Of a stretch of 61,565 nucleotides of DNA, positions 8,190 to 59,306 are shown piece by piece (position 1 is the first letter of the stretch; every line of letters starts with the position of its first letter). The stretch spans positions 197,750 to 259,314 of the forward strand of contig CAZKAD010000001.1 of NCBI GenBank assembly GCA_964550845.1. Reading direction: 5' to 3'. Source of the stretch: an uncultured Gammaproteobacteria bacterium (GTDB lineage: Bacteria; Patescibacteriota; Patescibacteriia; Magasanikbacterales; UBA922). The translations under genes were made by a program, and so were the position numbers. The notes under the pieces are model-generated. The model ran no database searches. It saw nothing but the letters and a program-made list of their open reading frames with translations, and had not been told where the DNA came from.

Positions 8190-8201
8190 GTTAATGATTA
8201 A

Positions 8202-8225
8202 ATTTTCATCTCTCGAGATGAAAAT
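8202..8225. terminator. hairpin downstream of 6153..8189
   Basis: Arms attttcatc / gatgaaaat, centre tctcga. Confidence 0.65.
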
Positions 8226-8256
8226 AGTGAGTTAAAAAATTTAAACTACATTTCAA

Positions 8257-15962: not shown

Positions 15963-15986
15963 ATCTTTTTCCCTTGGGAAAAAGAT
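15963..15986. terminator. hairpin at the 3' end of RING gene 15986..16606
   Basis: Arms atctttttcc / ggaaaaagat, loop cttg. Confidence 0.55.
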
Positions 15987-20655: not shown

Positions 20656-20663
20656 AAAATTGA
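20656..20663 (+). promoter_or_regulatory. AAAATTGA octamer
   Basis: 34 nt upstream of ATG 20697. Confidence 0.6.
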
Positions 20664-38040: not shown

Positions 38041-38048
38041 TCAATTTT
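38041..38048 (-). promoter_or_regulatory. AAAATTGA octamer
   Basis: 62 nt upstream of ATG 37979. Confidence 0.6.
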
Positions 38049-38081: not shown

Positions 38082-38984
38082 TTAGTACATCAAAGCATTA
38101 TTCGTCGATCCGACTATTCTTGTAATATGAATTGCATTCATCATTTCCGCTACCTTCTGGAATAAATCAAAGTATTTGGAATCATCTGCGAATTGAGCTA
38201 TCAGACAAAGCAATCTTGGATCATACACTTCTCGGGTTAGAAAAAAGTTGAACACTCCTTTTGATTGAGATAAACCATTTACAACCAAGTTATCAAAAAT
38301 TGGCATCCAAATAAAAGCTCGACGGGGAGAAAAATTATCTCGGAATATTCTTGGGCATTCAACTCGATATTCGGCTTCTAAATCGTGAAAGATGCGTAAG
38401 ATAGCCGGAAAGAAATCATCCATTAGCATCGTGTACAACGAAATATTTGTTTTTGGAAGGACTTGAACAAAAGCACGATAATTGTCAGCAAATTTTTGAA
38501 CGAGAAACTCTCTCCGGGATGAATTTTGATCAAAGAAATAGTTAGCATACGATCTTGTATCCGAATAATTAGCAAGTCGAGCTTTTTGTTCGAGCTCTTC
38601 ATGATCAATACGATTATAGAATAATGCTTCAAATTTAAATGGAACTTGAGGAAGAAATGGAATAAAATCATTCTCAAAATTAATCTCGATGTTATATTGA
38701 TTTAATATCTCGCAAATTTCATCTGGAAAGAAATCAGATATTTTTTCTTTCCCATAGGTATTGAGAATAATTGATATTTGTTTTTGATTTACCAAATCAA
38801 CAGAATCTGGTGAAGTTTTACTTAATTTTGTGATTGAGACATAAATACATTTCCGTTGATTTTTTTGAAATGGATCATTTAAGATCCGAAATATTGGAGG
38901 TTTTCGTCTGCCCTTAACAGCATCTTTCCATTTATGATATAAATCATTCATTGTCGATTTAATCTCCTTCGACCTGATCATCAT
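38082..38984 (-). CDS. LYDPRLL-motif family protein, subtype B
   Basis: 300 aa. IPFLPQVPFKFEALFYNRIDHEEL is paralogous to 40042..40872. C-terminal FLTREVYDPRLLCLIAQFADDS. Confidence 0.8.
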   Translation of the reverse strand: MMIRSKEIKSTMNDLYHKWKDAVKGRRKPPIFRILNDPFQKNQRKCIYVSITKLSKTSPDSVDLVNQKQISIILNTYGKEKISDFFPDEICEILNQYNIEINFENDFIPFLPQVPFKFEALFYNRIDHEELEQKARLANYSDTRSYANYFFDQNSSRREFLVQKFADNYRAFVQVLPKTNISLYTMLMDDFFPAILRIFHDLEAEYRVECPRIFRDNFSPRRAFIWMPIFDNLVVNGLSQSKGVFNFFLTREVYDPRLLCLIAQFADDSKYFDLFQKVAEMMNAIHITRIVGSTNNALMY

Positions 38985-39055: not shown

Positions 39056-39931
39056 TTATCTTGTAAATTGATTGATTAGTATCAATAATCGAGGATCGTA
39101 CAAATCTTGAAGAAAAAAGGATTGTAATAATGATTCGGTATCAGAGAGACCAAGAATGATCAATCGATGAAACTTATTTTCGAGTAGACAATTGTCTTTG
39201 TATGGAAAAACTCTCTGAACATCTAAACAAGTCTTTTTCTTCTCTTGAATAACATCTTGAATAACATCTCGAATAGCAGTATCTTCGACCAACAAAAATG
39301 TTTCCTCTGACTCTGTGTATGAATTACCATCGTGAATCCATAATTGGAGATGTCGAACTGGAATTGAAAGTATCCCTTTGAGAAGAACCCGAACGAATTG
39401 TTTAAGAGGTCTTTCGGGATATTTAACCAGTCCTTCGGGACGTTTAACAAGACCTTGAGGATATATTTTAAATCGAAATATAGTAGTATTGTTTATGTGA
39501 TGTCCTGTATAAGGATATTCGGCGATGAGAATTGATGAAATTTTACTTTTGTTTCCTGAATAAACACGAGTTGGAAACTGATTAATAAAGTCAATAACCA
39601 TTGTGTGTTTTTCTTTTGGAATCATCAGATCGACACAATGAAACATAATTAAATTTGAATGATATTCACCTTGGTATCCAATATTCTTTGATTCCGAATG
39701 ACCATAGTAAACAAACTTTCTTTGTTCTCGTTCAAATTGTTCCAAATCTAACGATTCGTTAAGATCGAGATTTAATAAACACCATTCCCAGTGATAAGAG
39801 TATTCTTCATTATCATCAAGATAAATACCAAGCGTGGCTTTGTCCACCATCATATCTTTAAGATAATTTAAGAAAGAAAATAAATCTCTGTCATCAGACC
39901 GAGAACATAATCCCGATCTATCCGAAAACAT
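39056..39931 (-). CDS. LYDPRLL-motif family protein, subtype A, with a 3-unit in-frame repeat insert
   Basis: 291 aa with N-terminus MFSDRSGLCSRSDDRDLFSFL and C-terminal end FFLQDLYDPRLLILINQFTR. YPQGLVKRPEGLVKYPERPLKQ is encoded by 39400..39472. Confidence 0.8.
   Translation of the reverse strand: MFSDRSGLCSRSDDRDLFSFLNYLKDMMVDKATLGIYLDDNEEYSYHWEWCLLNLDLNESLDLEQFEREQRKFVYYGHSESKNIGYQGEYHSNLIMFHCVDLMIPKEKHTMVIDFINQFPTRVYSGNKSKISSILIAEYPYTGHHINNTTIFRFKIYPQGLVKRPEGLVKYPERPLKQFVRVLLKGILSIPVRHLQLWIHDGNSYTESEETFLLVEDTAIRDVIQDVIQEKKKTCLDVQRVFPYKDNCLLENKFHRLIILGLSDTESLLQSFFLQDLYDPRLLILINQFTR
39400..39472 (-). repeat. GTTAAAC-hairpin element, 3 tandem units inside a CDS
   Basis: The plus strand reads tttaagaggtctttcgggata tttaaccagtccttcgggacg tttaacaagaccttgaggatat. 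On the gene strand it is read as YPQGLVKRPEGLVKYPERPLKQ. Confidence 0.85.
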
Positions 39932-39945
39932 TTTCGGTGTGATTT

Positions 39946-40046
39946 TGGACGTTTAACCACTTCAGAGAGTCCTGGGACGTTTAAAATCAATTTATTTAAT
40001 CAGTCTCGAAGAAAAGTTTAATCAGTCCTTTGGACGTTTAATCAAA
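39946..40046 (-). repeat. GTTAAAC-hairpin element, array of 3-4 divergent units
   Basis: ttggacgtttaaccacttcagagagtcctgggacgtttaaaatc...tttaatcagtctcgaagaaaagtttaatcagtcctttggacgtttaatc. Confidence 0.8.
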
Positions 40047-40872
40047 TTTCATTGGTGTCAATTTCTAATATCGATCGAGCAAGTCGAGACTCCCAAGATT
40101 GCCCCGTTTCATCTCTAAACTCATTGATCAGACAAAGCAATCTTGGATCATATAAATCTTGAGTAAGAAATTGGAACAACGGACCCGATGAGTAAATCGA
40201 TATACTATTCACTACAAGATTGTCCAGCTTAACTAAAGATTCATTTGATTCAAATTCCTCAGATACTTGAAATGTCCTTTTAACTTCACAATTTTCTTCA
40301 ACCTGATGAAAAGCTTTTAAAATTTCAACCGGAAAACTTCGAACAATCACAATATAAGAAGAAATTTTTGATCTTGACAGCGCCTTAAGAAAAATGTGGT
40401 AATTATGTGAGAGTTCTTCGACGAGAAACTTTCGTCTTTCTTGATCTTCATCAAAAAAGTAATTTGTAAAAGAAGAGATAAAGAAATGATCATATAATGT
40501 CTGACATTTTTGTCTTAATTTTTTATCATCAATTTGATTGTAAAAAACTGCTTTGAATGCAAAAGGTATCTGAGGAATAAGATGAACTGAATTCATAATG
40601 AAAGAAATTGAGACATCACAACGCGATATTTTCTCGATTATCTTTTTTGGAAACAATTTATCAAAAGTTTCATTTGTTTGAGGTTCGAGAGAAATGGTGA
40701 TGGAATCTGGGCAAATAACTACATTATTGTACCGCATTGCACTTCTCCCGTGGGTATGAATGAATACTTTTTTCTTTCCTTCGAGAGAGAAAGATTTTTT
40801 CCAATCATCAAAGTGCTGAATTGTTACTGACGAGTGCATCTTTATTAATTGATCAGATAAAAAGAAGATCAT
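40042..40872 (-). CDS. LYDPRLL-motif family protein, subtype B
   Basis: 276 aa with LIPQIPFAFKAVFYNQIDDKKL and C-terminal FLTQDLYDPRLLCLINEFRDET. Confidence 0.8.
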   Translation of the reverse strand: MIFFLSDQLIKMHSSVTIQHFDDWKKSFSLEGKKKVFIHTHGRSAMRYNNVVICPDSITISLEPQTNETFDKLFPKKIIEKISRCDVSISFIMNSVHLIPQIPFAFKAVFYNQIDDKKLRQKCQTLYDHFFISSFTNYFFDEDQERRKFLVEELSHNYHIFLKALSRSKISSYIVIVRSFPVEILKAFHQVEENCEVKRTFQVSEEFESNESLVKLDNLVVNSISIYSSGPLFQFLTQDLYDPRLLCLINEFRDETGQSWESRLARSILEIDTNEI

Positions 40873-44400: not shown

Positions 44401-45402
44401 TTAAAACAAACCAATCAAATTGATCGAGCGAGGATCATACAATTCTTCTGTTAAGAAAGAATGAAAAATACTTGCATTTTTAGCATTTAACCAATCCGAT
44501 AGGACGTTTAACCCGTTAGCAATTAATTGGCAAAAATTCAAATCATTCCAGCACACCGACTTCGATCGCTGTTGGCAAAATCGATGTAGATAATCGATGC
44601 CTGGGTAATCTTCGAAATACCAACACGCAATTAATCTCGCTCCGTGTTTGTTATTTAACTCTTCTGTTTTGTCTGCTGCGAGATAGGAAATGTTTTCAAT
44701 CGGAAGTTTACCTGGATATTGAAGACAATTAAGCAGCATCTTTCGATTATTAATTTCAAGAGTTTTGATGCTTTTTACCTGATTAAAGTAACTCATATCG
44801 CCGTGAAAAAATGGAAACATATAGAAAAGATCACAGACAAGTCCGTTAAGAAATCGATATTGCTCAGTATCAACAAATGGCAACAAGTATCCGAAATGGA
44901 GTCCTTGGTAAGGAAAATTTTCTTTTGCTTGTAGAGAGTAAAATCTTTGAAGAAAAGACCAATCTTGTCTCGGTTCGTCATATGTAAAAAATGGAAGTTC
45001 AATATGGATCACGTTCAACTCGCTAATATCAATATCAGGTAAAGCAGTAACAAGCGCGAAGTTTTCTTTATCGGCTGGTTCCCGGGGTCGAGGTTGAAGC
45101 GAAATGATAAAAAATTCGGTATTTTGTTCACTCTCAAGATTATTTTCGTTTATTGGTTTTTCTCCGTCAATCTTTTGCAGACCGAGTAAATTCTCAAAAC
45201 TTCCAAGCGAAGTAAATATTTTAGCAATCCCATCCGGAAATCTACCTTGTTCAAATTGATCCAGCATATCTTCAAGTTCCTTTTTTGACGAAAGTTCAAT
45301 CGTTTGCGGGAGTTCGTAACGAAACATTTCAGTTGAACTTCTTTCGGAGGGGTGTTTGATTTGATAAACAATTCTTTGAATCAATTTTCTTAGCCAGGTC
45401 AT
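44401..45402 (-). CDS. LYDPRLL-motif family protein with an in-frame repeat insert
   Basis: 333 aa ending FLTEELYDPRSINLIGLF. GLNVLSDWLNAK is encoded by element copy 44486..44515. Confidence 0.8.
   Translation of the reverse strand: MTWLRKLIQRIVYQIKHPSERSSTEMFRYELPQTIELSSKKELEDMLDQFEQGRFPDGIAKIFTSLGSFENLLGLQKIDGEKPINENNLESEQNTEFFIISLQPRPREPADKENFALVTALPDIDISELNVIHIELPFFTYDEPRQDWSFLQRFYSLQAKENFPYQGLHFGYLLPFVDTEQYRFLNGLVCDLFYMFPFFHGDMSYFNQVKSIKTLEINNRKMLLNCLQYPGKLPIENISYLAADKTEELNNKHGARLIACWYFEDYPGIDYLHRFCQQRSKSVCWNDLNFCQLIANGLNVLSDWLNAKNASIFHSFLTEELYDPRSINLIGLF
44486..44515 (-). repeat. GTTAAAC-hairpin element inside a CDS
   Basis: The gene strand reads gggttaaacgtcctatcggattggttaaatgc, translated as GLNVLSDWLNA. 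Confidence 0.85.
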
Positions 45403-45461: not shown

Positions 45462-46334
45462 TTATTCTTCTGCGAATTTCCAGATCAAGATTAGCACTCG
45501 AGGGTCGTATAGGCCCATCTCAGGTGTATCGCAACAAAGAAACTTGGTCCAATGATTCGAATCCTTCTTTCCGGATAACCCAGCTAAGATTAAGGTATCA
45601 AAATCTTTCTGTGAGTATAGCCAATTCGTGAATCTATCTGGATTTTGGAGATGACGCTGATAATGTTGAATCAGCAAGCCCCCGTTTGGATACTTATCGA
45701 TCTTCTCAAATGTCGGAATTAAATCCGCTGTGAAAAAACCTGAAATTTCGATTGATTCAACCGGCAACTTTCGTGGATATTGAATCAAATCGATTAAGTC
45801 TTCAGGTTGAGAGATAGTCAAAACTTCAACACGATTCATCTTTTCGATCTTCTTCAGTGTAACTCCGTATTGCTCGAACTGCATCTCAAGAAATTTACAT
45901 CCGAGCCCGTCGAGAAGTTTTCCATAGCAAACAGAGTCAACCAGATGACCTATCTCGACGCTATAAATCCCATCGAATTTTGGAGTTCGTTGGGAATTCA
46001 TTCTTGAGAATTGGCGAAAAATACTATATAGATCTTCCGACAATTCGGGACTCTCGTAGTTGAAGATGAACTTGATCACTGTATTCTCAGGAGTGAAAAT
46101 TTTTTCCACCGTGATTGTATCTTCTTCATCATCTTCCAAGAAATGAGAAATAATGCTGACACATACTACAAATGGATTTTGTTTGTCAAGAATGTTCATT
46201 AGGCTTTTTTGTTCCTCATCCGGGTAAGAATCTTGGAACAATTCTTGGGTAGAGATCTTTCCATCGGTCAAATCTCTCAGCATCTGATTGCATTCATTAA
46301 GAGTAATTTCTCTTGATGAACTGAACTGATTCAT
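45462..46334 (-). CDS. LYDPRLL-motif family protein
   Basis: 290 aa ending EMGLYDPRVLILIWKFAEE. AAAATTGA on the gene strand at 46410..46417. Confidence 0.8.
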   Translation of the reverse strand: MNQFSSSREITLNECNQMLRDLTDGKISTQELFQDSYPDEEQKSLMNILDKQNPFVVCVSIISHFLEDDEEDTITVEKIFTPENTVIKFIFNYESPELSEDLYSIFRQFSRMNSQRTPKFDGIYSVEIGHLVDSVCYGKLLDGLGCKFLEMQFEQYGVTLKKIEKMNRVEVLTISQPEDLIDLIQYPRKLPVESIEISGFFTADLIPTFEKIDKYPNGGLLIQHYQRHLQNPDRFTNWLYSQKDFDTLILAGLSGKKDSNHWTKFLCCDTPEMGLYDPRVLILIWKFAEE

Positions 46335-46409: not shown

Positions 46410-46417
46410 TCAATTTT
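46410..46417 (-). promoter_or_regulatory. AAAATTGA octamer
   Basis: 76 nt upstream of ATG 46334, with a repeat element in between. Confidence 0.55.
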
Positions 46418-48552: not shown

Positions 48553-51500
48553 TCATTTTCTTCGATGAGTGCGCTTTGGTACTTTCTTTCGATTACCATT
48601 CTTATTTGGAATATCCATACTCATTTGATTTTCAGCCCATTGATTATAGTGTTCAATGTAAGCTCGTTCAAATTCATCGAGCTCCTTCTCCCACATTTGG
48701 CGAGCCGATGTATTCAGTAAGGTGTCATACTCTTTTCGAAGGAGATTATATTGTGCTGCCAGTTTCTCAATCATATCATAACAAAAGTTACTGACTGGAA
48801 TTTTAAGCAAATATTCGTGGCTCCCATCAATTTGTTGAAAGTTAGCTTGTTGAATTTTTTGGAGAATCTCGGCTTTCTTCTTTTTGAAGATAACAATTTG
48901 ATCACTCACAACTGCTTGAATAAAACGATATTTCTCAGCAGTGGCTGTCATTCTTTTCAACAAGTTAGCAAGAATGTATTCTTTTCGAACTTGATAAAGA
49001 CGGAGTCTCTCCTTTGCAAAGGTGAAAATAATCTGATCAACCGAATCAAAAGTTTCTGGAGGATGTGCATAATCAATAAACGCGGTCATATTACTGGTAG
49101 ATAATTTTGTCACTAAATTTAAATGTTTGAGAATATTTTCCGGATTTCCAATCAGTGTAAAATCAACTCGAACTGCACTTGAATGATCGATGAAATCTTC
49201 TATCACCTCCTTTTCGCGTAATTCTTTCAAAGTTTCTTTGAAATCTGATGTCCACTTTCCAATTGGCAGTTCGGTAATGTGAACTGAATTTTCGCTTGCA
49301 AGTTGAACCACACCTTCGGTTTGATAACGTTGATAACCAACTTTTTTGACTGTTCCACGAAAACCTCGATACCATGGAAGAAGTTCAGGAAGCTCTGAAA
49401 AAGTTATTTTCGATTTTCCTACATTAACAGTGGTGATTTCATCGAGATTTTCTCGGATCCATATTCTGAGAGCTCGAATAATGTCAAGAGGATTGAATGC
49501 TGGAATGGAAGTTGACCATCCAGTTCCAATTCCATCACACCCATTAACTAAAATGGTTGGGATGACTGGAACATAATATTCCGGCTCAATTGGCCCTTTT
49601 TCTCCTTGTCGATAAGTCAAAACGGGAAAATCTTCGGCCCGAAAAAGATAATGCATGATTTTTTCGAGTCGAGTCATTACATATCTTGTCTCAGCCGCAT
49701 CTTTTCCACCTTTCAATCGAGATCCAAATTGACCTGCAGGTTCAAGGTAGTTAATATTGCCTGCACCAATGAAATCTTGAGCCATGCAAACAGCTGCGTC
49801 GCTTAAACATTTGTCATTGTAGTGATATTCCGCAATTGCAGTGGTATGAGCCGCAACTTCGACAACTTTGATTTCATCACCTTGGCCAGCAACAATTTTT
49901 TTCTTAAAGCACGCGAAGATAATTTTTCGTTGTGATTGTTTGAGTCCGTCGAACACAGACGGAATAGCTCGGATATTGCTGGTGATTGAAAAATTAATTA
50001 CTTCAGTGTTGATAAAATTCGAATATGTGGTTGAGACATATTGAGCTTTTTCATCTCCGATAAACATGAAGTTATCTTCATTGTAAGCTCGAATCCAATC
50101 TTTTCTGGCTTCAGCATTGTTTTTACCGAATACTTTCTTAAAGTTTTCGACCATGTTCGGATCCGGAAGATAAAGTTGCATCCTTGATCCAAAACCATCG
50201 AGAATATCTTTGTCTCGATTGGTACCCAGTCCCTTAAAATACTTCGGTTTTCCATATTTACCTTCGTTATTGGCTTGAAAGTCTTTGAATGTTGATTGAC
50301 GATAAAATTTCCTTTCTTCTCCATTCTTCATTGTCAAACGGATGATTGGAGTTTTCATTGACATGACAAAACTCGGTGTTCTTGACATCAATCCGGGAAA
50401 CATTTTTAGCAGATTATTATGAATTAGACCTTCAATATGAATTCCATCATCATCTGCATCGGTGACTAACACCAAAGCTCCATATCTCAAAGTGACAAGA
50501 TTTTCATCTTTACTATAATCGACTCCAAGTTTGAGACCCAGTGCTTGAATAATGTTTTGAACTTGTTTACTCTCAGCAATTTTTTCAGCGTTCGCTTTTT
50601 GTGTATTGAGAATTTTACCTCTGAGAGGAAGGATTCCAAGATAGTCACGACCAGTCTTTCCATTCAGACCTTTTGCCAATCCTTTGGTCACAAAGGTGGC
50701 AGCTGAATCTCCTTCACAGATAAAAAGAATGCATTCCATTGAATGGATTGTTCCAGCTAAATTTGCATCATCAAGTTTTTCGATATTGAGATGTTTCTCA
50801 CCAGTCCCTTCCATTTTCTTCTTCTGCACTCGGTAAATCTTCGATTCAATCAATTCCTTCAACGTTGTAATCACCGGCCATTTCATAATCTTATTCAAGA
50901 ACTTTGCATCAAGATGAATTTCAGGCTTTGGCAAAGAAAGTTTCACCTTTTCTTGTGAAGTAAACTTTGGATTGTCTGCGCCATAATTGATGAATAGTGA
51001 AAAATGTGAGGCGACTTCTCGACCAGTGATTTTACATTTATCATCCTTCAGTTCAGCATTTAGACGAGAGGCAATTTCAGTGAATAAAACTTTGTGCCAA
51101 GCGTCAACATGAACACCTCCCTCTGGTTGAGGAATGCCATTGGTAAAAGCAACGATAGTTGGATTATTACTCGCCATAATTGCGACCTCGTTATCAGGTA
51201 AGCTAATGGCAAGGACTTCAGATTTTTCTTCCGAATACATCGAAGCATAATCAGCCAGATTTTTAACTGGAACTAAAACGTCATTGAAATAGACTTTTAC
51301 TTTAGTCAACATCGCAATATCATAGGCGTACTTTTGCAGCACAGCCATTGAAGAAGCAGTGATTCCTGGCATACCAAATTTTTGATAATCGGGCAGCCAG
51401 TGAACAAAAGTATAGCCAGTTCCACTTTTCGAAACGACCTGCGGAGCTGTTACTTCAGTCATATTGTTCATCCAAACCTGGGTGAAATGGAGATTTCTTG

Positions 51501-51987
51501 TCGCATCTTGGGTCTCAACTTTGAACCATTTGGAGAAAGTTGAGGTTAATTTGGAACCAAATCCATTTCGCCCTGAAGTTCTTCTCTTTTCATTATCATT
51601 GTAGTTTGTCGATGACATATAAACACCGAATACGATACTCGGATTGAACATTTGTTCATAACCGGGGATTCGACTTCGTTCAATGGGAATAGTTCTTCCA
51701 TCATTCCAGAAAGAAATACTTCCATCTTGGTAAATGTTCATTCGAATAGTTGTACATTTGGTTGTCGTACTTGATCTCCAAACATTATCGATACAGTTGC
51801 TTCCAATTTCGATTACAGTTCTTTCCCATGCTGGGTTGAAAGTGACATTATCGTAAACGATTTTTCCATTCTTCACCACTGGGACATAGAAACTATCATT
51901 TCGAAAAGTTCCAAGATAAGTATCGGGACGATGGAGAACATGCTCACGCATGTTTCCCATCACCCGAATTTCAGGATCATGTGCCAT
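48553..51987 (-). CDS. TOP2: DNA topoisomerase II (type IIA)
   Basis: 1144 aa with an N-terminal GHKL ATPase region, the TOPRIM motifs CEGDSA and PLRGKILN, VTDADDDGIHIEGL, and the active-site context AETRYVMTRL. Confidence 0.97.
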   Translation of the reverse strand: MAHDPEIRVMGNMREHVLHRPDTYLGTFRNDSFYVPVVKNGKIVYDNVTFNPAWERTVIEIGSNCIDNVWRSSTTTKCTTIRMNIYQDGSISFWNDGRTIPIERSRIPGYEQMFNPSIVFGVYMSSTNYNDNEKRRTSGRNGFGSKLTSTFSKWFKVETQDATRNLHFTQVWMNNMTEVTAPQVVSKSGTGYTFVHWLPDYQKFGMPGITASSMAVLQKYAYDIAMLTKVKVYFNDVLVPVKNLADYASMYSEEKSEVLAISLPDNEVAIMASNNPTIVAFTNGIPQPEGGVHVDAWHKVLFTEIASRLNAELKDDKCKITGREVASHFSLFINYGADNPKFTSQEKVKLSLPKPEIHLDAKFLNKIMKWPVITTLKELIESKIYRVQKKKMEGTGEKHLNIEKLDDANLAGTIHSMECILFICEGDSAATFVTKGLAKGLNGKTGRDYLGILPLRGKILNTQKANAEKIAESKQVQNIIQALGLKLGVDYSKDENLVTLRYGALVLVTDADDDGIHIEGLIHNNLLKMFPGLMSRTPSFVMSMKTPIIRLTMKNGEERKFYRQSTFKDFQANNEGKYGKPKYFKGLGTNRDKDILDGFGSRMQLYLPDPNMVENFKKVFGKNNAEARKDWIRAYNEDNFMFIGDEKAQYVSTTYSNFINTEVINFSITSNIRAIPSVFDGLKQSQRKIIFACFKKKIVAGQGDEIKVVEVAAHTTAIAEYHYNDKCLSDAAVCMAQDFIGAGNINYLEPAGQFGSRLKGGKDAAETRYVMTRLEKIMHYLFRAEDFPVLTYRQGEKGPIEPEYYVPVIPTILVNGCDGIGTGWSTSIPAFNPLDIIRALRIWIRENLDEITTVNVGKSKITFSELPELLPWYRGFRGTVKKVGYQRYQTEGVVQLASENSVHITELPIGKWTSDFKETLKELREKEVIEDFIDHSSAVRVDFTLIGNPENILKHLNLVTKLSTSNMTAFIDYAHPPETFDSVDQIIFTFAKERLRLYQVRKEYILANLLKRMTATAEKYRFIQAVVSDQIVIFKKKKAEILQKIQQANFQQIDGSHEYLLKIPVSNFCYDMIEKLAAQYNLLRKEYDTLLNTSARQMWEKELDEFERAYIEHYNQWAENQMSMDIPNKNGNRKKVPKRTHRRK

Positions 51988-53399: not shown

Positions 53400-55046
53400 A
53401 TGCGGAAGCAAGAAGAGTTGGAATTTGAGCTTGTTCGACTCCCACACAGGCGGAAAATAGAACCCCCCTTGTTCCCAAAAATGCCACAACTCTATCTTGA
53501 TCTGCTTGGAAACACGAAGAAGATGAAGAAAGATTATGTACATTCTGGTAAGGAATTTGTTCCAAACTATGATAAAGCTCCCTTCCCCAACTATTTTCAA
53601 AGTTCTAATTTTGATTATCAACCTGCCAAACGAGAAATTGACGACAGTAATTTTAATATTGACGATAAGGATGAACAAGAAAAGAATGACCATAGCCAAA
53701 CCGAAAAGTCTAATGACCGCGAAGATAAAAAGCAAAATAGTAATATTCATGACATTTTTCAAAAAGCAAGAGATCGTCACCGAGACAAAGATCGGGAAGG
53801 AGATCTGGAAGGAGATAAAGACCGACATCGGGACTCGAGAGACAAAGATCGAGACTCGAGAGATCGGCATCGAGACAAAGATCGAGAAAGAGATAAAGAC
53901 CGACATCGAGACTCGAGAGATCGGCATCGAGACAAAGATCGAGACTCGAGAGATCGGCATCGAGAAAGAGATAAAGACCGACATCGAGACAAAGATCGAG
54001 ACTCGAGAGATCGGCATCGAGACAAAGATCGAGACTCGAGAGAAAAAGACAGACATCGAGATTCAAGAGACCGTCATCGAGATTCAAGAGATTCAAGAGA
54101 CCGACATCGAGATTCAAGAGACGGAGATGATTCGGATAGAAACGAACACGGCGACCCTCTTACGGATTTTCTTCAAGGAACAAGACACATTCGCCACACA
54201 AAGGACGCGAGAACACATGTTTCAACTGTCTCCTCAAAGCCGGCTAACAGAATGCCTCCTTCTCTCACAGAAATCGAAGAGGGTGGAGCTTTTAGTGGAG
54301 GTATTCGCAATTTGAATTATGTCTCGAAACAAACCCTTGAAGAGGAAGCGAAACTTCGAGAATATTTGTTCAAATGGGAATTGATTCGTAATGCGAACAA
54401 AGATAAAGCCGCCGAACTTCCTAAGTTTACCATACACAATAAATTGGATCAAGTTGTATCTGCTTATGATGACTGGAATCGAAAGACGCAAATTCCTATC
54501 GTGATTAATCGCTATCGAAAGTGGCTAATTGGAAGTTTCCATGCTATTCAATGGCTTGCCCCTACAATAGGTCTTGATATGTCAGGATTTGTTGAACAAC
54601 AAAAAGAAGAAATGGACGAATATGAAAAATTGTTGATTGAACTTGGTGAAAAATCTTGGATGCCTAAATCGAGTTGGCCAGTAGAACTACGTATTGTTCT
54701 TGCTGTACTCGGTTCGGCTCTTTCGTTTGCTGCCCAGAAATTGGTAATTGATACTATTATGGGTGGAGAATCCAAGTCCGGACAACCCGGACAGCCAATA
54801 ACTCCTCCAAAACCTCAAAATATTTCAAAACCTATGCCCAAACCTTCAATTAAGCTTGCAGACTTGCCTGGAGCAAAGAAACAAGAAGAGAAAAAACCTT
54901 TAGCGATACCCGAAAAGGCGGCTCTAAATACTCAAAATACTCCGAGCACTTCGACCACTCAAAATGGAAAGAATAATTCGCCTCCACTCGAAGAAAAGAA
55001 ATCTGAGCCAGATAAAAAGCCGGTCATTCCAGTTAAACGTTCCTAA
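53400..55046 (+). CDS. Arg/Asp (RD) dipeptide-repeat protein with a C-terminal hydrophobic segment
   Basis: ORF 53376..55046 trimmed to the first ATG. About 120 aa of DRHRDKDRDSRD repeats are followed by a non-repetitive region with VELRIVLAVLGSALSFAAQKLVI and a Pro/Lys-rich tail. Confidence 0.7.
   Translation: MRKQEELEFELVRLPHRRKIEPPLFPKMPQLYLDLLGNTKKMKKDYVHSGKEFVPNYDKAPFPNYFQSSNFDYQPAKREIDDSNFNIDDKDEQEKNDHSQTEKSNDREDKKQNSNIHDIFQKARDRHRDKDREGDLEGDKDRHRDSRDKDRDSRDRHRDKDRERDKDRHRDSRDRHRDKDRDSRDRHRERDKDRHRDKDRDSRDRHRDKDRDSREKDRHRDSRDRHRDSRDSRDRHRDSRDGDDSDRNEHGDPLTDFLQGTRHIRHTKDARTHVSTVSSKPANRMPPSLTEIEEGGAFSGGIRNLNYVSKQTLEEEAKLREYLFKWELIRNANKDKAAELPKFTIHNKLDQVVSAYDDWNRKTQIPIVINRYRKWLIGSFHAIQWLAPTIGLDMSGFVEQQKEEMDEYEKLLIELGEKSWMPKSSWPVELRIVLAVLGSALSFAAQKLVIDTIMGGESKSGQPGQPITPPKPQNISKPMPKPSIKLADLPGAKKQEEKKPLAIPEKAALNTQNTPSTSTTQNGKNNSPPLEEKKSEPDKKPVIPVKRS
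53766..54125. repeat. coding tandem repeats (gatcgagactcgagagatcggcatcgagacaaa type)
   Basis: Encodes the DRHRDKDRDSRD repeats. Several frames stay open on both strands. Confidence 0.85.
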
Positions 55047-55087: not shown

Positions 55088-55624
55088 ATGGGATCATCGA
55101 CAAAGAAACGACAGAGTAAAAACACGGAGAGGAAGTCGAGACGAAAACGGACTTCAGGCCGAAAAAAGAAAAGTAAGCTTCGAAGTCCTTCACATCGAAA
55201 AAGGACAAAGAGCAAGCTTCGAAGTCCTTCACATCGAAAAAGGACAAAGAGCAAGCTTCGAAGTCCTTCACATCGAAAAAGGTCTTCGTATGGAAAAGCA
55301 TTTGCAATAGTTAAGTTCGAACTATTCGACGAAAGTACTCAGCTCAAATATCCTCCACAAGGAGATGAAATTCGAAAGTGGTACGATCAATTATTTGCTA
55401 AAATATCACCAATGTACAATGATTTGAACAAGGATGTTTATCTCCTCTCGAAAAGATGGCTAAGTGATGCTGAACTGAAGCTAACTTTTGTCACATCACT
55501 GAAAGATCAATCAGAAGTTGATACATTACTTGAACTTTTAACGGATCTTGATGATGACGGAAATTATCCAATTCGGGGAATGTTAGTCATACCAAAGGTC
55601 TTATCAATTGAATATTCATTTTGA
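55088..55624 (+). CDS. protein with basic KLRSPSHRKRTKS x3 N-terminus and a globular C-terminus
   Basis: 178 aa. A 39-bp tandem repeat at 55175..55284 encodes the basic repeats. Confidence 0.7.
   Translation: MGSSTKKRQSKNTERKSRRKRTSGRKKKSKLRSPSHRKRTKSKLRSPSHRKRTKSKLRSPSHRKRSSYGKAFAIVKFELFDESTQLKYPPQGDEIRKWYDQLFAKISPMYNDLNKDVYLLSKRWLSDAELKLTFVTSLKDQSEVDTLLELLTDLDDDGNYPIRGMLVIPKVLSIEYSF
55175..55284. repeat. 39-bp coding tandem repeat x2.8
   Basis: aagcttcgaagtccttcacatcgaaaaaggacaaagagc. Confidence 0.9.
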
Positions 55625-55657
55625 AAAAATTTTTTCTTCTCTTCCAAAACAAAACGA

Positions 55658-55933
55658 ATGGCGAAATCAAAATCGAGATCGCGGCGATCAAAATCGCGAC
55701 GATCGAAGAGTAAATCTCGATCAAAGCGATCAAAGAAGTATTCTTGCAAACGTGTCAAGCCAAAGAAGCGAAGCAAGTCGAAGAAATCGAAGCGAGCAAA
55801 GAAATCAAAGAAGGAGAAGGTTGAATCAACTCAGTCTCATTCTTTGTTGGCTAGATTGTCACGCACGAGTGCGAGCGCTGCACCTGCAGACGCGCCAATT
55901 GAATGGAAAGCAGGAGTAAATTGGGTAAAGTAA
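55658..55933 (+). CDS. very basic Lys/Ser/Arg-rich small protein (protamine/SR-like composition)
   Basis: 91 aa beginning MAKSKSRSRRSKSRRSKSKSRSKRSKK...KSKKSKRAKKSKKEK. Hairpin 55943..55970 lies downstream. Confidence 0.65.
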   Translation: MAKSKSRSRRSKSRRSKSKSRSKRSKKYSCKRVKPKKRSKSKKSKRAKKSKKEKVESTQSHSLLARLSRTSASAAPADAPIEWKAGVNWVK

Positions 55934-55941
55934 AAAATTGA
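55934..55941 (+). promoter_or_regulatory. AAAATTGA octamer
   Basis: 66 nt upstream of the Skp1-like ATG 56007. Confidence 0.6.
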
Positions 55942-55942
55942 T

Positions 55943-55970
55943 TTTTTATCTGGGGTTTCCCAGATAAAAA
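55943..55970. terminator. hairpin downstream of 55658..55933
   Basis: Arms tttttatctggg / cccagataaaaa, loop gttt. Confidence 0.6.
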
Positions 55971-56006
55971 TAACAAAATAACATAAATCTTAATCTCACA
56001 ATCGAA

Positions 56007-56624
56007 ATGTCTACTGAAGAACAAAAGATCGAAACGTCTACTAACGAACAAAAGATGGAAATTGAAGGACTTGATGCTGGAGTACAAGATGATTTCATCA
56101 AATTGAATTGTCGGGATAAAGTAATCGTTTCTGTGCATAGAAGAGCCTGTAGACTGTCTTCCTTGTTTCGAGGTTTACTCGAAACTCAGCCATGTGCGCC
56201 CGAGCATGAGGTTAAACAGATCGACTCTCATATCATGAAGCTAATTGTTGAATATCTTGAACATTATCGATACGAAGAACCGAAGATTCTGGAACCTCCA
56301 TTGAAGACTCCTGATCTAAAGGATCACGCCTCGGAATGGGATTGCAAGTTTGTTGCATACGACACCCCCGAACAGATGGGAACTTTTCTGACGCTGCTCA
56401 ATGCGGCAAATTTCTTGGAAATTATTTCGCTGAGAAATCTTTGCTGTGCAAAGTTCGCCACATTTCTCAAAACTAAAAATGTTGATGCATTGAAGGCATT
56501 GTTTAATGTGAAAGCCACGTTGACTCCCAAAGAAGAAAACGAAATTCGAAAGAAGTACCCCGAATACTTTGCTTGGTTGAAGTCTTCGCAAGAGACAAAA
56601 ACCGAGAGTAAAGTTGACGAATAG
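56007..56624 (+). CDS. SKP1: Skp1-like protein
   Basis: 205 aa. IKLNCRDKVIVSVHRRACRLSSLFRGLL is a BTB/POZ-like N-terminus. EWDCKFV...TFLTLLNAANFLEIISLRNLCCAKFATFLKTKNVDALKALFNV..TLTPKEENEIRKKYPEYFAW is collinear with the Skp1 C-terminal dimerisation region. Confidence 0.85.
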   Translation: MSTEEQKIETSTNEQKMEIEGLDAGVQDDFIKLNCRDKVIVSVHRRACRLSSLFRGLLETQPCAPEHEVKQIDSHIMKLIVEYLEHYRYEEPKILEPPLKTPDLKDHASEWDCKFVAYDTPEQMGTFLTLLNAANFLEIISLRNLCCAKFATFLKTKNVDALKALFNVKATLTPKEENEIRKKYPEYFAWLKSSQETKTESKVDE

Positions 56625-56772
56625 CCGAACTCATTGATGTGTGTAAATTCGATAATAAAATGATTTTAATTCTTCTCGAAGAACTAAAAATAATACGTAC
56701 TACTTACTTAAAATAATCTTCAGATGAGAAAGTAAAGTTATGCTAACTTTTATTTTTATTCGAAGGATCAAT

Positions 56773-57153
56773 ATGTACCATTTTCTTAAGAATTGTTTTC
56801 CTTCGTTGACACGCAAAACATACAATTACACTGTCCGATCTCCAAGCTTTCAAGGATGGGTGATTGGAAAACATCAAAATATTGATGTCTGTTGCTGTGC
56901 CATATTCCGTAAAGGACCAAAAATAAAAATGGGCTTATTTGCGGTGCTTCCACACTATCAAAACAAAGGTTTTGGGAGAGAAATGTACAAATATCTCTGT
57001 AATCAATATCATTCTTTCCAATGGACAACTAACACACAAAAAGCATACAATTTTTGGATCAAATGCGGAGCCATATTAATTGATACTTACATTATGGATG
57101 GAGTTAAATACCATCTGTTCAAGAACGCGCCAGTCGAAGAAAAAAAGAAATAA
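56773..57153 (+). CDS. GNAT-family N-acetyltransferase-like protein
   Basis: Trimmed to ATG 56773. AVLPHYQNKGFGREMYKYL fits GNAT motif A (Q/R-x-x-G-x-G/A). Confidence 0.6.
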   Translation: MYHFLKNCFPSLTRKTYNYTVRSPSFQGWVIGKHQNIDVCCCAIFRKGPKIKMGLFAVLPHYQNKGFGREMYKYLCNQYHSFQWTTNTQKAYNFWIKCGAILIDTYIMDGVKYHLFKNAPVEEKKK

Positions 57154-57172
57154 TTTCCTTTGGGAAATTATT
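57149..57172. terminator. hairpin overlapping the stop of 56773..57153
   Basis: Arms aataatttcc / ggaaattatt, loop tttg. Confidence 0.6.
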
Positions 57173-57174
57173 AA

Positions 57175-57248
57175 TTAAACGTCCTTGAAGGACTTTTAAG
57201 CGTCCTCGAGAAGGACTTTTAAACGTTCTCGAAAAGAACTCTTTAAAA
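57175..57248 (+). repeat. GTTAAAC-hairpin element, tandem array (3 units)
   Basis: ttaaacgtccttgaaggactt, ttaagcgtcctcgagaaggactt, ttaaacgttctcgaaaagaactc, between convergent genes. Confidence 0.9.
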
Positions 57249-57470
57249 ATATTTTTCAACCTTATCCTGCATGCTGTCAGGCACAAAAAGATGGTATCCT
57301 CCATAGAGAACTCCTAGAGAACCTCCAATAATCATGACGGTATGAAGGAAAGTTAGAATATTCATTTGAGTACTGGCAACTTGTTGACCATTTCGGCATT
57401 TTCGTTCCGAGTCAAGAGCCAATGAGGCGTAGACAAGAATAAAAGCAGCGACAATAAAAACTGCAAGCAT
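57243..57470 (-). CDS. small two-TM membrane protein
   Basis: 75 aa with MLAVFIVAAFILVYASLAL and LHTVMIIGGSLGVLYGGY. Confidence 0.5.
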   Translation of the reverse strand: MLAVFIVAAFILVYASLALDSERKCRNGQQVASTQMNILTFLHTVMIIGGSLGVLYGGYHLFVPDSMQDKVEKYF

Positions 57471-57506: not shown

Positions 57507-58034
57507 TCAGGGAATGATTGGCTCCGAGACACAATAGACATACCCGTTATTGAACAAATTTCCATTGGTGGTGAGAGAAAGGGTTTGCATACTGCCATTC
57601 AAAAAGAGAGAAATTTTACGCTGAACGAGTGTAAGCTTAATCTTCGGATTTCGTGTTGGTAAAATAACTTGCTGGGAAAATAAGTCATCAGGTCCCCGAA
57701 CCAAGTCGAAAATATGAGCCCCAATAAACTGTGTTGCTTCGGCTCGATCAAGACTAAGCAACATTTTTTGAACATCTTTCGGAAGTGAATCGTCCGGTAC
57801 AACCAGTAAAGTCACTTTTGCTTTCGGATCATTGAGAAGATCTGGAAAATGTGTTTTTTCAACAAGAGTTTTGTAGATGGAAAAATTTTTATCTTGAAGA
57901 GCACTGTAAATTGTCCCCGGTTGAGGAGTCCAAGCAAGATAAGGATTTTTTGCAAGTGCTCGATCAAAACGAAGTTCACCTACACTGGGAAACTCTTTCG
58001 ACCATTCTACGTTATACCCGCTGGTGACTGACAT
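57507..58034 (-). CDS. fasciclin (FAS1)-like domain protein
   Basis: 175 aa. VTLLVVPDDSLPKDV, FIGAHIF and the C-terminal NNGYVYCVSEPIIP resemble the FAS1 H1/H2 and NGV.H.ID.VL.P pattern. Confidence 0.55.
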   Translation of the reverse strand: MSVTSGYNVEWSKEFPSVGELRFDRALAKNPYLAWTPQPGTIYSALQDKNFSIYKTLVEKTHFPDLLNDPKAKVTLLVVPDDSLPKDVQKMLLSLDRAEATQFIGAHIFDLVRGPDDLFSQQVILPTRNPKIKLTLVQRKISLFLNGSMQTLSLTTNGNLFNNGYVYCVSEPIIP

Positions 58035-58088
58035 CTTTTACAGAAAAAGATTTTATTTTTCTACGAATAAAAGTTTGACCCCTTCTAA

Positions 58089-59306
58089 ATGTCTTCTTTT
58101 TGGCTTGAGGATCCAACAGAATTGTTCCGAAATTTGGAGCTTCTTCCAAATCCAGGGAGCAATATCGCGTCAAAGTTGAATGCGCTTACGAGATTGGCAG
58201 TTGTAGTCGGACTTGGAATTTATCTTCTTAATAAGGACTCAAAAGAGTCGAGCTCTCTCTGTATAATCACATTTGGTATTCTTCTTTTGTTCATCGTAAT
58301 CACTGCTTATTATTCAAAGAGTAAGGAAGGTTTCCGACCTCCTCCGATGCCAGTAGTTGAAAAGCCTACGCCAACATATCCTCTATCTTCACCAACCGTC
58401 AACCTCTCTGGATTGCAAGCAACCCCATTGTGGTATGATCCAAAATACGGAGCTGGACCAAAAGAATATCGAGACCCTCCAGTAATTCCACCAAATCCGG
58501 CTGATGCTAAATTTTGGGGAGGATTTCAATCGAGGATTAATGAACCTCGACCACAAATTATTCACTCGAATGTTGAAAGTGTTCTGTTCAAAAATGAACA
58601 ACCTTATTCACAGCGAATTAGCCTTCCCTCTCGACAGAGAAAAGGATTTAAAATTCTTGGTGGACCTCATCAAGACGAACCTGAAATTCCATTTGTTATT
58701 GATGACCAGGGACTAAACCCCCCGAATTACACTCGTATTCGAGGATATTCGATGCATGATCCGAGTGTTCCTCCTTATTCGAATCTTGAGCTATTATCAC
58801 CAAGTCAATCTTTTGTTCCGGGAGCTCAAGTCCCTTCGGGACGGTCTCAACTTCATGCTTATGATGACTTTGCAAATGTTTGGTCTGCCGGAAACACTGA
58901 CTTTTTGACCTCTAAGATGGCTATTCATCGTACTCATCCCGCGGTTGATACTGGAGAATTCCGTCAAGCTTCCACAATTGGTCTGGCAGATTCAATGTAC
59001 AATCCAACATTTAAACCGTTTGACCCGGCAAGCACTTATTTTAAGACCAGTAATAACCCTTATGACGGTTTGTTCATTGGACGAAGTCTAATTGAACACG
59101 TTGATATGCGAGCTCCAAATGGTGAAGTTCTTCCCGGTTATTTGAGAATGGGATTTACCAGCGACGACTTTATGGATGAAGCGACAAGTCGTCAAGAAGC
59201 AGATGAATTGTACTTTCGAGAAGCAATGGTTGCCGATGTTCGTGCTCGGATGAATGAGCGAGAGCAAGAATTCCGAATGGCACCTGTAATGAATCATTTC
59301 ATGTAA
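58089..59306 (+). CDS. membrane protein (two N-terminal hydrophobic segments, Pro-rich body)
   Basis: 405-aa ORF with LNALTRLAVVVGLGIYLL and LCIITFGILLLFIVITAYY. Confidence 0.75.
   Translation: MSSFWLEDPTELFRNLELLPNPGSNIASKLNALTRLAVVVGLGIYLLNKDSKESSSLCIITFGILLLFIVITAYYSKSKEGFRPPPMPVVEKPTPTYPLSSPTVNLSGLQATPLWYDPKYGAGPKEYRDPPVIPPNPADAKFWGGFQSRINEPRPQIIHSNVESVLFKNEQPYSQRISLPSRQRKGFKILGGPHQDEPEIPFVIDDQGLNPPNYTRIRGYSMHDPSVPPYSNLELLSPSQSFVPGAQVPSGRSQLHAYDDFANVWSAGNTDFLTSKMAIHRTHPAVDTGEFRQASTIGLADSMYNPTFKPFDPASTYFKTSNNPYDGLFIGRSLIEHVDMRAPNGEVLPGYLRMGFTSDDFMDEATSRQEADELYFREAMVADVRARMNEREQEFRMAPVMNHFM

Follow-up and report, generated by a model that had tools for sequence, protein, structure and literature searches.

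A Skp1-family gene and a co-occurring family of LYDPRL-box proteins in an uncultured lineage of large DNA viruses

The window, by which we mean the whole 61,565-nt stretch that was analyzed (contig CAZKAD010000001.1, positions 197,750 to 259,314 of the forward strand), contains a gene of the Skp1 family. The source of this gene is a large DNA virus of the Nucleocytoviricota. The gene, the motif upstream of it and the parts of its product are as follows:

56007..56624, plus strand: Skp1-family gene, ATG start, 205 aa and stop
55934..55941, plus strand: AAAATTGA, candidate early-type promoter, an exact match 66 nt upstream of the Skp1 ATG
56067..56084, plus strand: GLDAGV motif (aa 21–26) in the N-terminal extension, from alignments A1 and A3
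56094..56270, plus strand: BTB/POZ-like domain of Skp1 (aa 30–88), PF03931, presumed cullin-binding half
56367..56576, plus strand: C-terminal helical domain of Skp1 (aa 121–190), PF01466, equivalent to the F-box-binding helices H5–H8
56547..56585, plus strand: clade-specific C-terminal tail RKKYPEYFAWLKS (aa 181–193), from alignments

In the ORF check, the opposite strand carried many stop codons. The start codon was backed by a homolog, P0002 (78% identical), which has an N-terminal extension of the same type.

Both Skp1 domains were recognized by Pfam above their cut-offs, PF01466 (Skp1 C-terminal domain) over aa 142–185 (E=9.6e-10; 38.6 bits versus 22.3) and PF03931 (Skp1_POZ) over aa 30–88 (E=2.6e-5; 24.7 bits versus 21.9). 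The generic BTB profile, PF00651, scored 15.5 bits, under its cut-off of 20.5. A phmmer search of the PDB sequences gave human SKP1 (7t1y_A, E=4.9e-11) as the best match, aligned to aa 31–183 of the viral protein. Plant and yeast Skp1 ranked after it, and Elongin C matched only the POZ part (aa 28–88, E=1.6e-3). The AlphaFold2 model had a mean pLDDT of 79.5, with values of about 90–97 in the core (aa 30–160). The top 50 Foldseek matches of this model in the PDB were SKP1 chains without exception (E 3e-10 to 2e-7), with target-normalized TM scores of 0.70–0.83 over 152–169 aligned columns.

Because of the two Pfam matches, the phmmer alignment to SKP1, the model and the Foldseek results, membership of the product in the Skp1 family is virtually certain, and the protein is Skp1 as opposed to a generic BTB protein. 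The Skp1 layout that a sequence-only reading had proposed for the 205-aa product was thus borne out, with the BTB/POZ-like N-terminus and the C-terminal F-box-binding helices both present. The peptides which that reading quoted were all found in the translation. The profile search that it had set as a check did not return a generic BTB protein lacking the Skp1 C-terminal helices; PF01466 matched.

The POZ half was predicted to contain strands at aa 30–35, 40–44 and 66–69 together with helices (pLDDT 89–97), and was 22% identical to human SKP1. The C-terminal domain, with predicted helices at aa 121–136, 140–156, 159–165, 174–183 and 185–188, was the best conserved part of the protein (35% identity to human SKP1). 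It kept the AAN[FY]L segment of helix H5, in which N135 and F136 were invariant across the viral clade. The same segment of human SKP1 contains N108 and Y109, which we take to be CUL1 contacts.

Cellular SKP1 (human P63208, Arabidopsis ASK1 and yeast Skp1) has the same two-domain layout and fold as the viral protein, and WD..F, AAN[YF]L.I and the H6–H8 helices are common to both. On the other hand, the identity was only 24–27%, and the viral protein lacks the acidic loops, carries a 29-aa N-terminal extension and has an altered, longer C-terminus. Within the extension, alignments A1 and A3 showed GLDAGV almost without variation across the viral clade but not in cellular Skp1; this region had low pLDDT in the model. 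At the other end, P185, Y187, F188, A189, W190 and L191 of the tail were invariant in alignment A1. The clade C-terminus reads KYPEYFAWL, also invariant, in place of the RKENQWCEEK that ends helix H8 of cellular SKP1. Cellular SKP1 places its C-terminal helix (aa 147–163) between F-box and substrate domain (PMC13237083).

Judged from its sequence, the Skp1 copy in the window belongs to a small divergent clade. The clade comprised about 14 clusters, and the gene was conserved with many invariant positions in about 12 viral clusters (40–78% identity). Among the accessions looked up for source samples, PRJEB12083 covers wastewater and river samples. IMG/VR, scanned with the Skp1 profile and with the pattern YPEYFAWL, gave no match to the clade. 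A relative with a 51%-identical Skp1 has retained the gene order Skp1-GNAT-75aa-fasciclin-P9. A strain variant (L002) was considered as evidence for purifying selection, and this argument was dropped. Its Skp1 differed by a single synonymous change, but the genes on either side and the DNA between genes were equally identical.

Nine ORFs in the window carry the motif LYDPRL within a C-terminal box, which is all that these paralogs have in common:

18904..19779, plus strand: LYDPRL-box protein, box at 19579..19752
19822..20655, plus strand: LYDPRL-box protein, box at 20449..20622; AAAATTGA upstream at 19772..19779
20697..21503, plus strand: LYDPRL-box protein, box at 21174..21347, then a 67-aa extension; AAAATTGA upstream at 20656..20663
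37047..37979, minus strand: LYDPRL-box protein, box at 37134..37307; AAAATTGA upstream at 38041..38048
38082..38984, minus strand: LYDPRL-box protein, box at 38178..38351
39056..39931, minus strand: LYDPRL-box protein, box at 39059..39226
40042..40872, minus strand: LYDPRL-box protein, box at 40105..40278
44401..45402, minus strand: LYDPRL-box protein, box at 44404..44565, at the extreme C-terminus
45462..46334, minus strand: LYDPRL-box protein, box at 45465..45635; AAAATTGA upstream at 46410..46417

The motif, described previously as LYDPRLL tails, is therefore real, and its placement is not restricted to the extreme tails. The N-terminal regions of the nine proteins were unalignable beyond subfamilies. 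AlphaFold predicted three helices (aa 253–263, 268–276 and 280–290) for the box of the 39056..39931 product at low pLDDT (about 55–66), and Foldseek with this low-confidence model returned nothing usable.

In public sequences the 45-residue box was found by profile search in at least 192 cluster representatives at E<=1e-3. An alignment of 153 sequences gave the column profile [LF]xx[LI][IV]xxGL ... WxxFLT[RK]GLYDPRL[LF]x[L]IxxF, in which D-P-R was invariant (153/153). The box is fused in a modular fashion to hypervariable domains, including WD40 propellers that bear it at the C-terminus (P0120, P0063 and P0105). Its position is mostly C-terminal, and N-terminal in P0091, P0150 and P0046. IMG/VR scanned with the box pattern gave no match. 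The box is a well-defined domain without a Pfam model and with a receptor-like architecture.

The sequence-only reading had suggested that these tails are F-box-like modules that dock on Skp1. Pfam found no F-box, F-box-like or PRANC match in the nine full-length paralogs at E<=0.01, and no F-box or PRANC match in the nine isolated boxes at E<=10 or in 20 box relatives. With hhalign, the 153-sequence profile matched nine F-box sequences at probabilities of 0.1–0.4%. The residues typical of F-boxes, LPxE(I/L) in helix 1 and a conserved (V)C(K/R)(R)W stretch near helices 2 and 3, were missing from the column profile, which had neither an LP start nor CKRW. A search of the PDB with the box profile retrieved no F-box protein, only designed helical repeats with 'GDPRLL'. 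These repeats suggest a D-P cap at the beginning of helix 3, and nothing beyond that. The F-box-like part of the suggestion was thus not supported by sequence, and a role in docking on this Skp1 is plausible from the architecture and from the strict co-occurrence with the Skp1 clade.

Every contig of at least 12 kb that carried a Skp1 of the clade also carried box ORFs. There were nine in the window, four in L013/L014, three in L010/L021, three in L019, one in L006/L007/L018 and one in L015/L016/L020. Three distant, AT-rich Skp1-like loci (L027–L029, 40 kb in total) had none. That two lineage-specific families are found together in the same genomes does not demonstrate that they interact.

Among the 100-nt regions upstream of the window ORFs, about 60 in all, 17 contained the octamer AAAATTGA, 11.5-fold above its window-wide frequency. 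Both the Skp1 gene and five of the nine box genes have it upstream. In mimivirus it is an early-gene motif, and it is found within the IIV-6 DNApol promoter (PMC5294985). The Skp1 gene probably starts from an early-type promoter of this kind, and would then be expressed early. The octamer was rejected as a family marker for this virus, being common to mimiviruses and the iridovirus IIV-6.

Two further candidates of the ubiquitin system are encoded in the window:

17629..18717, plus strand: RBR-type E3 ligase candidate, Pfam IBR and PDB matches; context, with no implied cooperation with Skp1
15986..16606, minus strand: putative membrane-anchored C3HC4 RING protein, from its cysteine pattern; context

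The first, called an RBR E3 in the earlier reading, matched Pfam IBR (E=1.1e-6; 29 bits versus a cut-off of 24.3). Over RING1-IBR-RING2 it matched HOIL-1 (E=3e-4) and ARIH1 (aa 2–175, E=2e-3) in the PDB. The RING1 cysteines and an Rcat-like motif were present (GDGCDHVRCVCGF; GDGCDHVRCVCGFEFWW; GDGCDHVRC). The claim is backed by the IBR match, by HOIL-1 and ARIH1 and by the Rcat-like GDGCDHVRCVCGF, and a RING1-IBR-RING2(Rcat) arrangement with a putative catalytic cysteine is supported. For the second, read earlier as a membrane RING protein, the C3HC4 spacing (C36-x2-C39-x17-C57-x-H59-x2-C62-x2-C65-x6-C72-x2-C75) and the hydrophobic segments after it agreed with the claim. The PDB matches were weak and were all IAP RING fingers (E 0.02–0.3), and Pfam gave no match at E<=0.01.

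Pfam scans of the 60 window ORFs found no cullin, Rbx1, E2, ubiquitin or canonical F-box, and tblastn of the window with ubiquitin, NEDD8, UBE2D2 and RBX1 found no gene. This upheld the earlier statement that cullin, Rbx1, E2 and ubiquitin genes are missing from the window. One ORF (9664..10233) that was hit by UBE2D2 in tblastn (E=0.04) was rejected as an E2, as it had no HPN motif and no Pfam or PDB match. Since none of the four is encoded in the window, the virus must take the core of the ligase from its host or encode it in another part of its genome.

Our favored explanation is that the Skp1 gene is expressed from an early-type promoter and that its product is an adaptor bridging host cullin-1 and the LYDPRL-box receptors. 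The BTB/POZ half would bind a cullin-1 at its N-terminal domain, the cullin presumably being that of the host because none is encoded nearby, and the C-terminal helices (the H5–H8 equivalents) would hold a substrate receptor. The virus would so assemble SCF-type ubiquitin ligases, by which host or viral proteins may be marked for degradation, as with A039L of PBCV-1. The most likely receptors would be the virus's own box proteins, which join hypervariable target-binding domains to a constant box with three predicted helices, and the invariant KYPEYFAWL may be the matching surface for the box. An SCF adaptor role for the viral Skp1 is quite likely, and the explanation as a whole is rather probable. 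That the box family is the partner of the viral Skp1 is a tentative proposal, somewhat less likely than not. Still more speculative is the idea that the box is an undescribed, non-F-box Skp1-docking module, co-evolved with a dedicated viral Skp1 whose KYPEYFAWL C-terminus recognizes it.

Alternatively, the viral Skp1 may work with host proteins only, either recruiting host F-box proteins and Cul1, so that the host SCF is retargeted, or titrating host F-box proteins or Cul1 as a decoy, by which host cell cycle or immune SCF functions would be blocked. The box would then serve another partner, such as another adaptor, a receptor for virion or viral-factory targeting, or itself by self-association. 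The F-box-binding half is the part most like cellular SKP1 (35% identity), which would suit canonical F-boxes. The box showed no F-box similarity by Pfam, hhalign or the PDB profile search, and there were no canonical F-box proteins among the 60 window ORFs. The partners of chlorovirus Skp1 can also bind Skp1 of divergent species, and cross-talk with the host is known (PMC7019647). However, KYPEYFAWL replaces the very end of H8 that contacts F-box proteins, which points to a changed and dedicated partner. The strict co-occurrence with the box and its receptor-like architecture would also stay unexplained. We consider this alternative rather unlikely.

A role independent of cullin, such as that of cellular Skp1 in the CBF3 kinetochore complex and further non-SCF complexes, would make the protein, for example, a scaffold of the viral factory. 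The Foldseek matches did include non-SCF Skp1, from yeast CBF3 (6gyp) and from the oocyte cytoplasmic lattice (12dl and 9xrl), and the conserved GLDAGV has no counterpart in SCF biology. On the other hand, the AAN[FY]L segment of H5 is conserved, the only characterized viral Skp1 acts in SCF mimicry, and the neighborhood is rich in E3 components (RBR and RING). Such a role is therefore judged highly improbable. A generic BTB/POZ or Elongin C-like protein with superficial Skp1 likeness, in keeping with the sub-threshold PF00651 score and the Elongin C match over the POZ part only, was ruled out by Pfam, PDB phmmer and Foldseek and has next to no chance of being correct, given a Skp1-specific C-terminal domain above cut-off, an SKP1 alignment spanning both halves and top 50 structural matches that are all SKP1 chains, aligned over 152–169 columns.

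The favored adaptor model has a precedent in PBCV-1. A039L is a characterized viral Skp1 that binds viral ankyrin proteins through their C-terminal motif (PMC7019647), and SKP1 is also listed in the Yellowstone Lake phycodnaviruses (PMC4602308). Like the virus studied here, PBCV-1 encodes its own Skp1, and its ankyrin-repeat partners, A682L and A607R, are multigene-family proteins in which a protein-binding domain is followed by a short motif at the C-terminus for interaction with Skp1. The box proteins resemble them, with docking being putative. The cullin in the PBCV-1 system comes from the host, in a form of SCF mimicry (PMC7019647), and the same is proposed here. In contrast, the candidate partners in our case are not ankyrin proteins, and no resemblance of their box to F-box or PRANC was detectable. 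The Skp1 itself is placed in a separate divergent clade with GLDAGV and KYPEYFAWL, and is set apart from A039L on these features.

Skp1-like proteins of other giant viruses share the fold: those of Solumvirus (A0A3G5AGC1), Bodo saltans virus (A0A2H4UTP4), Sylvanvirus, Pandoravirus japonicus, Pithovirus LCPAC304, Aureococcus anophagefferens virus, Fadolivirus and Cedratvirus. Foldseek against BFVD matched such proteins with E values of 2e-11 to 5e-5 and TM scores of 0.5–0.7. They were only 10–29% identical to the Skp1 of the window, the nearest being that of Solumvirus (29%), and are therefore not of the same orthologous group. No LYDPRL-box partner family is described for them in the literature searched.

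The ankyrin/PRANC proteins of poxviruses and AnkB of Legionella offer a second comparison. They too are expanded pathogen families in which a constant module of about 40–50 residues, a docking module there and a candidate one here, is combined with variable target-binding domains. PRANC sits C-terminally in poxvirus ankyrin proteins, and the placement of the box matches this. The AnkB-SKP1 structure (5k35) was among the Foldseek matches of the viral Skp1 model. The PRANC and AnkB modules, however, are recognizable F-box derivatives that use the Skp1 of the host, whereas the LYDPRL box is not recognizable as an F-box derivative and the virus supplies a Skp1 of its own.

A viral Skp1 is not a new kind of gene, because such genes have already been described in chloroviruses and several other giant viruses; the gene in the window extends a known phenomenon by a further lineage. 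By capturing the SCF adaptor, a virus reveals the host pathway over which it needs control. If a dedicated Skp1 is combined with a large receptor family, the virus would reprogram host protein turnover broadly. If the box is indeed a docking module recognized by the viral Skp1, the two would constitute a private, orthogonal SCF-like system, in which dozens of interchangeable receptors, with WD40 and many novel domains, are plugged into the host cullin. The LYDPRL box is the part worth following, with its at least 192 protein clusters and a concrete candidate partner. Binding to the viral Skp1 would make it a new motif for adaptor docking and a handle for finding what this uncultured lineage of giant viruses targets in its host.

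The ORF at 56007..56624 opens with ATG and codes for 205 residues plus a stop, and the strand opposite is interrupted by stops. The sequence-only reading had assigned the product to Skp1, the adaptor of SCF ubiquitin ligases, and all the peptides it quoted were found in the translation.

56007..56624, + strand, Skp1 gene
55934..55941, AAAATTGA upstream of Skp1, 66 nt before the ATG
19772..19779, 20656..20663, 38041..38048 and 46410..46417, other copies of AAAATTGA
17629..18717, RBR ligase candidate
15986..16606, putative membrane RING protein
48553..51987, type II topoisomerase
58089..59306, minor capsid protein P9 homolog

In Pfam, Skp1_POZ (PF03931) was matched at aa 30-88 with 24.7 bits (curated threshold 21.9), and the Skp1 C-terminal domain (PF01466) at aa 142-185 with 38.6 bits (curated threshold 22.3). 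The generic BTB model stayed under threshold. Among PDB sequences, human SKP1 matched best (E=4.9e-11, aa 31-183), with Arabidopsis ASK1 and yeast Skp1 next; Elongin C aligned to the POZ part only (E=1.6e-3). An AlphaFold2 model built from 14 homologs (mean pLDDT 79.5; approximately 90-97 in the core, aa 30-160) contained the strands and helices expected for Skp1. Its best 50 Foldseek matches in the PDB, without exception SKP1 chains, had E from 3e-10, target-normalised TM of 0.70-0.83 and 152-169 aligned columns. Since the three kinds of matches all pointed to SKP1, the product is, with near certainty, a Skp1-family adaptor, not a generic BTB protein devoid of the C-terminal helices.

A virus-encoded Skp1 is not new. 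The chlorovirus PBCV-1 encodes one, A039L, which binds two viral ankyrin-repeat proteins via a C-terminal Skp1-interaction motif, F-box-like in function (PMC7019647, review), and SKP1 genes are listed for Yellowstone Lake phycodnaviruses (PMC4602308). Among predicted viral structures, the nearest by Foldseek was an annotated Skp1-like protein of Solumvirus (E=2e-11, 29% identity). Further matches so annotated were from Bodo saltans virus, Sylvanvirus, Pandoravirus japonicus, Pithovirus LCPAC304, Aureococcus anophagefferens virus, Fadolivirus and Cedratvirus. The window gene adds a divergent member, and as a Skp1 it is ordinary among giant viruses.

Word-indexed searches across 5.8 billion proteins found only about 14 clusters of relatives, about 12 of which formed the clade proper (40-78% identity, many invariant positions). 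An N-terminal extension with a near-invariant GLDAGV (aa 21-26) set this clade apart from cellular Skp1. GLDAGV (56067..56084) lay in a low-confidence part of the model and had no cellular Skp1 counterpart. The C-terminal half was closest to human SKP1 (35% versus 22% identity) and kept the AAN[FY]L of helix H5. The acidic loops of cellular Skp1 were missing, and the C-terminus was longer, with RKKYPEYFAWLKP where cellular Skp1 has RKENQWCEEK; P185, Y187, F188, A189, W190 and L191 in it were invariant. In complexes, the last helix of cellular Skp1 is wedged between the F-box and the domain that binds substrate (PMC13237083).

Short contigs of sequencing-run assemblies carried the identical protein, as did a contig of an NCBI metagenome assembly; one of the more distant clade relatives came from a wastewater and river project. 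The order Skp1-GNAT-75aa-fasciclin-P9 was conserved in a relative with a Skp1 only 51% identical. Near Skp1 in distant relatives of approximately 50% GC were a 258-aa histone-fold protein of doublet size and TBP (locus L010, 5360..6136 and 10353..11051; locus L013, 17831..18607 and 7592..8290), a hint of the affinities of that branch. Other Skp1-like proteins (P0030 and P0031, loci L022-L029; 26-33% identity), from contigs very rich in AT (GC 16-26%), were without the KYPEYFAWL tail and ended in a CaaX-like SCCIIF or SCCTIF; their surroundings held no LYDPRL-box ORF. They are probably from another lineage, possibly cellular.

The genome is that of a large DNA virus of the Nucleocytoviricota, with approximately 36% GC in the window. 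Besides the topoisomerase and P9, the window encodes a DUF5767 protein, two Ser/Thr kinases, a thymidine kinase, a patatin-like phospholipase, an SMC/Rad50-like ATPase, a macro domain protein and collagen-like proteins. Two adjoining large paralogs with similar C-terminal ends (31930..33966 and 34015..35982; 678 and 655 aa) may be fibre or surface proteins, because the second contains collagen triple-helix repeats (Pfam E=1.6e-10). Similar C-terminal sequences also suggested small tandem paralog families at 8257..8856/8863..9489 and 24914..25582/25615..26292/26335..26976, whose ORFs had no Pfam match. The 463-aa product of 2894..4285 has an N-terminal T5orf172/MUG113 (GIY-YIG-like) domain, typical mobile-element cargo of large DNA viruses. 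Consecutive ORFs right upstream of Skp1 (53400..55046, 55088..55624, 55658..55933; + strand) encode highly charged repeats of low complexity: arrays of DRHRDSRDKDR in the DUF5767 protein, SKLRSPSHRKRTK repeats, and a 91-aa KSKSRSRRSK-rich basic protein. These repeats gave rise to several spurious overlapping ORFs. Between two strains (the window and L002, with 57507..59306 facing L002 2168..3969), window 55340..57470 including intergenic DNA was 99.8-100% identical, the fasciclin gene 96.0%, a 244-aa ORF 94.3% and the P9 gene 87.8%. This mosaic pointed to recombination or to rapid evolution of a protein on the virion surface.

Of about 60 upstream 100-nt regions, 17 contained the octamer AAAATTGA, an 11.5-fold excess over the frequency of the octamer in the window; its total count, 32, was barely above shuffles (23.3 +/- 4.5). 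It marks early genes in mimiviruses and is also in the IIV-6 DNA polymerase promoter (PMC5294985), so it does not fix the virus family. It is likely an early-promoter motif, and its position suggested that Skp1 may be expressed early. A second intergenic element, resembling (C)CCTTCGGGA..TGGTTAAACGT, recurred, for example upstream of 18904 (three copies), 27856, 29135, 36091, 39931, 52187 and 55088. GGTTAAAC and TTAAACGT were enriched 6-7.6-fold upstream of ORFs, and many short GC-rich palindromes (CTCTCGAGAG, TCTTCGAAGA) lay between genes. The second element and the palindromes may be late promoters and/or hairpin transcript-end signals.

The LYDPRLL motif was borne out in nine window ORFs. 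Their N-terminal 200-280 residues could not be aligned outside subfamilies, and the sole common block was a box of approximately 45 residues. A profile from these nine boxes matched 192 proteins at E<=1e-3 among 1.84 billion cluster representatives. The consensus of 153 boxes was [LF]xx[LI][IV]xxGL - loop - WxxFLT[RK]GLYDPRL[LF]xLIxxF, with D, P and R invariant. The box was mostly C-terminal; in some relatives it was N-terminal and followed by 300-480 residues. In three relatives examined individually a WD40 propeller preceded it (in P0120, WD40 at aa 5-356 and box at 363-400), and twenty others examined had no Pfam domain. The AlphaFold model of the box had three short helices at low confidence. 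From this layout, the box proteins appear built like a substrate-receptor family, a constant docking module with many target-binding domains. In the box gene 44401..45402, AAAATTGA lay just within the annotated start (45381..45388), so the true start codon may be a downstream ATG.

The proposal that these tails are F-box-like found no support in the sequence. Pfam gave no F-box, F-box-like or PRANC match to the full-length paralogs, or to isolated boxes even at E<=10. Hhalign of the 153-sequence profile against nine F-boxes, better read as a lead than as a strict test, gave probabilities of 0.1-0.4%. The PDB profile search matched designed helical repeat proteins containing 'GDPRLL' and nothing else, which suggested no more than a D-P cap where helix 3 starts. 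The F-box signatures LPxE and CKRW were missing from the 153-box profile. The box was therefore left out of F-box and PRANC.

Every contig that extended for 12 kb or more around a clade Skp1 had box ORFs.

Box ORFs on contigs carrying a clade Skp1
Window: 9
L006/L007/L018: 1
L010/L021: 3
L013/L014: 4
L015/L016/L020: 1
L019: 3

These lineages had 35% and 50% GC, and LYDPRL was unaltered across them despite Skp1 identities to the window protein of only 40-51%. No box ORF was found on L027-L029 (40 kb in all), distant AT-rich loci whose Skp1-like proteins are without the KYPEYFAWL tail. Neither the box family nor the Skp1 clade was found in IMG/VR. Exact AAAATTGA copies stood upstream of Skp1 and of five of the nine box genes. 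The evidence for a box-Skp1 link is associative, yet consistent, and makes the two a tentative candidate pair.

The RBR ligase at 17629..18717 was credible: Pfam IBR was matched, HOIL-1 and ARIH1 aligned across RING1-IBR-RING2, and an Rcat-like GDGCDHVRCVCGFEFWW was present. ARIH1 is an RBR ligase working on SCF-bound substrates, and the ARIH1/SCF structures 7b5l-n were among the matches of both the Skp1 model and the RBR ORF. By analogy, a functional tie between the RBR and the viral Skp1 is conceivable. For the membrane RING protein at 15986..16606, the C3HC4 spacing and hydrophobic segments stood, while IAP RING matches were weak and Pfam gave none. Scanning of 60 ORFs and tblastn turned up no cullin, Rbx1, E2 or ubiquitin gene in the window, as the sequence-only reading had stated, and no NEDD8 or canonical F-box gene there either.

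By analogy with chloroviruses, the Skp1 product would probably link substrate receptors to a host cullin-1 at an early stage of infection. The main rival, which we consider rather unlikely, is that it targets host F-box proteins or cullin, either hijacking them or serving as a decoy, the box having another partner. For the bridging Skp1, the receptors would be the virus's own LYDPRL-box proteins; the family is the best candidate set, an assignment we consider somewhat less likely than not. The altered Skp1 tail would probably be the surface matching the box. This box family, which may be privately paired with a dedicated Skp1, is the part worth experiment.
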